Assembly: GCF_003790525.1 (NCBI RefSeq)
Contig: NZ_CP033635.1
DNA: 64,000 nt
Strand: one strand, 5' to 3'
Source: Escherichia coli
GTDB taxonomy: Bacteria > Pseudomonadota > Gammaproteobacteria > Enterobacterales > Enterobacteriaceae
Positions 16,796 to 16,827 of the stretch are shown here, one piece after another (the stretch's first letter is position 1; each line of letters opens with the position of its first letter). Both the position numbers and the translations under genes were made by a program. The notes beneath the pieces were generated by a model that searched no databases, was not told the origin of the DNA, and saw only the letters and a program-made list of their open reading frames with translations.

Positions 16796-16827
16796 ATTAT
16801 ACAGCACATGTAACGCTAATGTCATTA
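16796..16827 (-). promoter_or_regulatory. Predicted sigma70 promoter and palindromic operator of the toxin-antitoxin operon
   Basis: Minus strand: -35 ATGACA (16825-16820), 18 nt spacer, -10 TATAAT (16801-16796); palindrome TAATGtCATTA (16817-16827) overlaps the -35. Confidence 0.55.

Follow-up and report, generated by a model that had tools for sequence, protein, structure and literature searches.

RHH repressors such as Arc, MetJ and CopG read short boxes in the major groove with a β-ribbon, and two of their dimers bind DNA cooperatively, spaced by roughly one turn of the helix. Autoregulated promoters are standard in type II toxin–antitoxin modules, so a control element of the kind described below was expected at this locus. 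The tacAT3 operator is reportedly the subject of Grabe et al. 2024. KacAT of Klebsiella pneumoniae (PDB 5ZGN) and AtaRT of Escherichia coli O157 belong to the same families as the pair analysed here, namely a GNAT toxin and a DUF1778 RHH antitoxin. In both, two touching antitoxin dimers flanked by toxin monomers form the repressing complex, the operator is pseudo-palindromic around a compressed AT-rich centre, and the complex becomes unstable when toxin is in excess (PMC6698736, PMC8138530). The KacAT–DNA crystal structure shows residues R8, D10 and R12 of KacA touching operator bases (PMC6698736). For the TacAT2 clade, a search of the searchable literature found no published operator, transcription start, footprint or binding data, and the motif strings reported below were found in full-text literature in unrelated primers only.

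We analysed a 64-kb stretch of E. coli DNA (the window), which is 99.9% identical to E. coli SMS-3-5. Between flgL and rne it carries a toxin–antitoxin cassette, and the DNA upstream of the antitoxin gene is probably a cassette-borne sigma-70 promoter of a TacAT2-type operon with its operator built in, as judged from sequence comparison.

The cassette and its proteins

The cassette and its two genes are located as follows.

15966–16845, minus strand: TacAT2-type toxin–antitoxin cassette of ~880 bp, delimited by alignment with K-12
16472–16764, minus strand: antitoxin gene, DUF1778/TacA RHH (Pfam PF08681, E = 3e-22), frameshifted here
15981–16475, minus strand: GNAT toxin gene, TacT2-like, 164 aa, with Pfam GNAT domains above cut-offs

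K-12 is without the cassette, and ~65 bp of its flgL–rne spacer are replaced by the ~880 bp found here; the flanks common to K-12 and the window are the rne terminator and the flgL/FlgO terminator. The toxin–antitoxin pair was found between flgL and rne in 685 of the 5426 complete E. coli genomes. The cassette carries its own promoter and candidate operator within it.

At the other end of the cassette, the 3′ end of flgL in K-12 encodes the small RNA FlgO (b4826), whose equivalent in the window lies at 15886–15965 on the plus strand. The FlgO terminator hairpin is conserved (15928–15956 in the window). Because the cassette starts ~10 nt beyond this hairpin, the toxin gene stops just ~25 nt short of a convergent terminator; read on the minus strand, the hairpin is trailed by an A-rich, not a T-rich, stretch. 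A decayed copy of the cassette was observed in E. coli HS-02 (L072, NZ_CP172818.1, equivalent to ~16000–16790), in which the antitoxin gene and the toxin N-terminus are deleted, the toxin remnant is annotated as partial, and the promoter/operator is intact to just past the −10.

The antitoxin gene comes first, and in intact or reference alleles the toxin ATG overlaps the antitoxin stop codon (ATGA). The antitoxin matched PF08681 with 78.8 bits against a cut-off of 21; NCBIfam returned no family match for either protein. The closest solved structure for both proteins was PDB 7AK7 (toxin versus 7AK7_A, E = 8e-76; antitoxin versus 7AK7_C, E = 1.4e-45), which contains two toxin and four antitoxin chains. 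This entry, whose PDB molecule names are generic, is reportedly the Salmonella TacAT2 complex of Grabe et al. 2021. The antitoxin of Salmonella diarizonae L017, whose first 50 residues equal 7AK7 chain C, fits this assignment. The toxin retains K29, R88 and Y137, including the catalytic tyrosine and the basic tRNA-binding residue; these three positions matter for TacT2 activity (Rycroft et al. 2018, PMC5959882). On the evidence of its protein sequences, the operon is an E. coli TacAT2-type cassette of an RHH antitoxin and a GNAT toxin.

The predicted DNA-reading strand of the antitoxin, K-R-E-T-L-N-L-R-I-K-P, is nearly invariant across homologous loci. KacA residues R8, D10 and R12 align to S/T13, N15 and R17 of the window antitoxin, which points to the same binding mode with another sequence specificity.

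The antitoxin gene of the window differs from that of SMS-3-5 by a 1-bp deletion at 16535–16539, shortening a minus-strand C run from C6 to C5. The RHH domain is left intact, and the last 22 residues, including the toxin-binding tail, are replaced out of frame to 16399. The C5 allele was found in just two of the 685 cassette-bearing RefSeq genomes, 2015C-4136CT1 and E686, both annotated “frameshifted”; these are 98.1–98.6% identical to the window over 1.87 kb. Since the backgrounds differ among the three carriers and the toxin is wild type, C5 would appear to have recurred, either as a homopolymer sequencing error or as a mutation. The allele could be a real, recurrent slip-strand event, giving an antitoxin that binds the operator and can neither neutralise toxin nor be bridged by it, but we regard this as rather improbable. 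If it were true, repression would be uncoupled from neutralisation and the toxin switched on in a subpopulation, and the toxin-bridged hexamer discussed below could not form in the window strain.

The promoter

The promoter elements upstream of the antitoxin gene, and the terminator of the preceding gene, are listed below.

16879–16846, minus strand: rne intrinsic terminator from a terminator scan, with a stem–loop at 16879–16856 and a T-rich tail to ~16846
16825–16820, minus strand: −35 hexamer ATGACA, 5/6 consensus matches
16801–16796, minus strand: −10 hexamer TATAAT, 6/6 consensus matches, 18-nt spacer from the −35
16787–16791, minus strand: predicted transcription start zone, 5–9 nt after the −10, from promoter geometry only
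16776–16772, minus strand: Shine–Dalgarno sequence AAGGA with a 7-nt gap to the antitoxin ATG, read from the sequence

An earlier note on this DNA had described a near-consensus sigma-70 promoter here, and its hexamers, spacer length, distance to the ATG and palindrome were all found on the minus strand where it had placed them. The −35 and −10 together give 11/12 consensus matches, with a spacing in the range of 16–18 nt upstream of a gene; the TGn of an extended −10 is absent. A full scan of both strands found this promoter alone at 11/12 or better in the 64-kb window, and mononucleotide shuffles gave 0.53 sites of at least 11/12 per 64 kb. The antitoxin ATG (16764–16762) lies 31 nt past the −10, and a leader of ~23–27 nt is expected from the predicted start zone.

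On the minus strand, the end of rne (stop codon ~16898) is followed by the hairpin at 16879–16856 with its T-rich tail and then by ...CAGGGGTAGCATCTTTGCTGTAATGACATTAGCGTTACATGTGCTGTATAATTATCATCCACGCAAAGCCGAAGGATATATTTATG. The proximity of the rne terminator noted earlier also holds, since it lies ~20–25 nt upstream of the −35 on the same strand. Its hairpin is identical in K-12 by alignment and is outside the cassette, the sequence common with K-12 resuming at 16846. Read-through past this terminator could add unregulated transcripts to the cassette operon.

A one-genome-per-species scan with the antitoxin yielded 66 loci encoding relatives, spanning Enterobacterales, Xanthomonas, Marinobacter, Desulfobulbaceae, Alpha- and Betaproteobacteria and Acidobacteria. 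Of these, 55 matched over the full length, and the 110–140 nt preceding their start codons were aligned; the flanks are unrelated. Many Enterobacterales loci are close kin, so that counts overstate independence, and a non-redundant set of 30 sequences was also used. An ATGACA-like hexamer followed after 17–18 nt by a TAnnnT hexamer was present in 28 of the 30 non-redundant loci, within otherwise unrelated flanks. With this recurrence, and as the sole site of its strength in the window, the promoter call is borne out; all computational tests at hand support it, and the promoter appears to be real.

The 18-nt spacer without TGn was observed in Enterobacterales and Xanthomonas, and most of the distant versions have a 17-nt spacer, frequently together with an extended −10; TGn is present in many of the 17-nt-spacer homologs. 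The two spacer lengths look like a one-base shift between box 2 of the dyad described below and the −10. Among E. coli genomes, the promoter occurs in five alleles, distinguished by SNPs or an indel of 1 nt. These changes sit upstream of box 1, in the stretch that separates box 2 from the −10, or downstream of the −10, and leave the 19-bp dyad and the −10 untouched.

A two-box dyad overlapping the −35

The only footprint common to the homologous upstream regions was a dyad with the family-wide consensus GTAATGAC-N3-GTCATTAC, which is present in nearly every upstream region at a constant distance from the start codon. In the window it comprises the following.

16828–16810, unstranded: proposed operator, a 19-bp imperfect dyad GTAATGAC-ATT-AGCGTTAC with its axis at T16819, from the footprint and symmetry profile
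16828–16821, minus strand: box 1, GTAATGAC, the strong half-site, holding five of the six −35 bases
16817–16810, minus strand: box 2, AGCGTTAC, a degenerate inverted box 1 (5/8 positions), in the promoter spacer

The centres of the boxes are separated by 11 bp, about one helical turn, and together the boxes cover the −35 and spacer. Across the homologs the upstream half of the spacer is taken up by box 2, which is separated from the −10 by 7–8 nt (8 nt in the window). Each 8-bp box is itself pseudo-symmetric in three of four pairs, in that the G-C, T-A and A-T positions pair and the A-G position does not.

An unbiased 8-mer count identified GTAATGAC as the most shared word, present in 22 of the 30 non-redundant regions, compared with at most 4 in shuffles. 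Information content was high over ~19–20 columns and fell almost to zero on either side. A symmetry profile covering every axis gave one sharp peak, with 0.71 of the pairs complementary against a background of ~0.25, at the middle base of N3 (T16819 in the window); the alignments were anchored on box 1, which brings some circularity into this profile, and the conservation of box 1 may partly reflect its −35 role. Representative versions of the dyad are as follows.

Most Enterobacterales: cGTAATGAC-ATT-AGCGTTACg
Xanthomonas: GTAATGAC-ATC-GACATTAC
Enterobacter sp. L023: GTAATGAC-ATT-GACATTAC, full string GTAATGACATTGACATTAC, a perfect or near-perfect dyad
Acidobacteriaceae MAG L045: CGTAATGAC-TTG-GTCATTACG, full string CGTAATGACTTGGTCATTACG, a perfect dyad
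L033: GTAGTGAC...GACACTAC, a symmetric double change, one per arm at mirrored positions

Conservation of this block solely as a promoter element, kept for RNA polymerase in an operon that is not autoregulated here, would fit with box 1 containing the −35 and with the fixed distance to the −10. However, conservation reaches 3 bp upstream of the −35 (GTA), and an inverted copy recurs in the spacer, a region without base-specific contacts to sigma-70. The symmetric paired changes in L033 also speak against this explanation, as does the intact, highly conserved DNA-reading strand of the antitoxin, and we consider it quite unlikely.

Box 2 in distant homologs is, at this position, a near-perfect GTCATTAC or GACATTAC, and Enterobacterales keep (A/T)GCGTTAC. 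Occupancy of the second site would be less certain in E. coli than in these distant homologs because just 5/8 positions match the inverted box 1. The degenerate box 2, with GCGTTAC kept across Enterobacterales, may tune the operator, such that tight repression would need the toxin-bridged hexamer.

Pectobacterium carotovorum DSM 30168 has two paralogous cassettes on the same contig ~4 kb apart (L008 and L009); locus L041 belongs to this observation too. Paralog A combines GTAATGAC-ATT-AGCGTTAC with KRETLNLRIKP, and paralog B combines GTAATGAG-ATA-AGCTTTAC with KRVTLNLRIKP (E12 to V). Operator and reading strand may thus co-vary, insulating the paralogs mutually.

A further dyad in the window, TTACA-N5-TGTAt, reaching into the −10, was rejected as it is lost outside close relatives. 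Both small dyads were found by a dedicated scan, and a general repeat search reported neither. A permissive Rfam scan of 15700–17100 returned two chance-level matches alone (E = 0.18 and 0.67).

The dyad and the cassette boundary

The dyad is just ~17 nt from the cassette boundary (16845), on the cassette side, the cassette is found in many different genomic contexts, and a tRNA-T-arm-like fragment precedes many Enterobacterales copies. These observations would suit a recombination or mobility site at the cassette end rather than a transcriptional operator. Such a role seems highly improbable, given that the 880-bp cassette contains no recombinase gene and that the register of the dyad is fixed to the −10 and the start codon, not to the junction. 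The opposite end of the cassette also lacks a matching repeat, since GTAATGAC-N7-TTAC with zero mismatches has one match in the window, at 16810–16828.

The tRNA-like flank resembles a T-arm and 3′ end (e.g. CGGTTCGATTCC) and was observed 30–70 nt upstream of box 1 at many Enterobacterales loci (among L003–L031); it is absent from the E. coli copy. ARAGORN called no tRNA genes at these flanks. The flank may be an attachment-site remnant, with the cassettes at the edge of tRNA-integrated islands.

The 11-bp palindrome

The earlier note had singled out an 11-bp palindrome at the promoter as the candidate operator for autorepression by the RHH antitoxin.

16817–16827, unstranded: 11-bp palindrome TAATGaCATTA with its axis at 16822, overlapping the −35, box 1 and the dyad centre

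The palindrome exists at 16817–16827 and does overlap the −35, with one correction to its lettering: the minus strand reads TAATGaCATTA, and the central t given earlier belongs to the plus-strand reading, TAATGTCATTA. It is made of bases 2–8 of box 1, the ATT centre and base 1 of box 2, which is not conserved. The window contains 91 perfect 5-1-5 palindromes, corresponding to ~0.13–0.19 expected per 133-nt spacer for that geometry alone, and because such palindromes are common this one is weak evidence by itself.

As a perfect 5-1-5 repeat on the −35, the palindrome could itself be the operator, occupied by one RHH dimer whose centre is at 16822. Its axis shows a secondary bump in the symmetry profile, and it is retained in 19 of the 56 homolog upstream regions, mostly Pectobacterium-like. 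By comparison, GTAATGAC is present in 43/56 and GTA-N13-TAC in 47/56, and at the palindrome axis 46% of pairs are complementary versus 71% at 16819, 3 bp away; within Enterobacterales the values are 0.51 and 0.65. The right arm of the palindrome varies freely in close homologs (CATCA, CATCT, CATTT, CATTG), the Salmonella tacAT2 ortholog included. This ortholog, L017, has a broken palindrome (TAATGACATCT) and retains the 19-bp dyad. The palindrome is likewise broken in the relatives of L017 (ATC-T), in Hafnia (ATT-T) and in Budvicia (ATT-G), and all of them retain the outer TTAC, a conserved element that the palindrome excludes. Palindromes of this size are moreover common by chance, and the known GNAT/RHH repressor complexes place two RHH dimers on a site of ~20–27 bp (PMC6698736). 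A single-dimer operator at 16827–16817 is hence unlikely, and the palindrome appears to be mostly a by-product of box 1 and the AT-rich centre of the 19-bp dyad. What stands of the original proposal is its kind, an inverted repeat at the promoter for RHH autorepression; the conserved unit is not the 11-bp palindrome.

Proposed mechanism of autorepression

With the 19-bp dyad as the operator of the cassette promoter, transcription would start at ~16787–16791. Two antitoxin RHH dimers would bind, with one β-ribbon per box, on the same DNA face and one helical turn apart, probably held in a toxin–antitoxin2–antitoxin2–toxin hexamer. With both boxes occupied, the −35 and the upstream spacer would be covered, RNA polymerase excluded and the operon self-repressed. 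The toxin would act as co-repressor; at excess it would weaken the complex and relieve repression of the operon, that is, conditional cooperativity by analogy with KacAT and AtaRT.

The gain is a testable candidate definition of the TacAT2-clade operator, GTAATGAC-N3-GTCATTAC overlapping the −35, which is useful for designing probes and discriminating mutations and for annotating TacAT2-type cassettes. From Acidobacteria through to E. coli, the promoter is accompanied by the candidate operator and the DNA-reading strand in a single compact unit.

Comparison with known systems

TacAT2 of Salmonella enterica is the closest solved relative, with proteins ~80% identical. Salmonella L017 agrees with the window in box 1, in the TTAC arm and in the spacing to the −10. 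The Salmonella module resides at another chromosomal site, whereas the E. coli cassette lies between flgL and rne. The spacer reads ATT-A in E. coli versus ATC-T in Salmonella, and therefore the 11-bp palindrome arises in E. coli.

The geometry of KacAT and AtaRT would suit the 2:4 ratio of chains in 7AK7 as well as the spacing of 11 bp between the boxes of the window and their ATT centre. By contrast, the window antitoxin is distant from KacA (E = 1.7e-07), and its putative reading residues are S/T13, N15 and R17 in place of R8, D10 and R12. The KacAT operator spans the transcription start, whereas the candidate operator of the window covers the −35 and spacer. The pseudo-symmetry of the GTAATGAC box (3/4 pairs) is as expected for a two-fold RHH dimer, as with Arc, MetJ and CopG; the operators of these three have no sequence relationship to the window dyad, and here the toxin is expected to serve as co-repressor.
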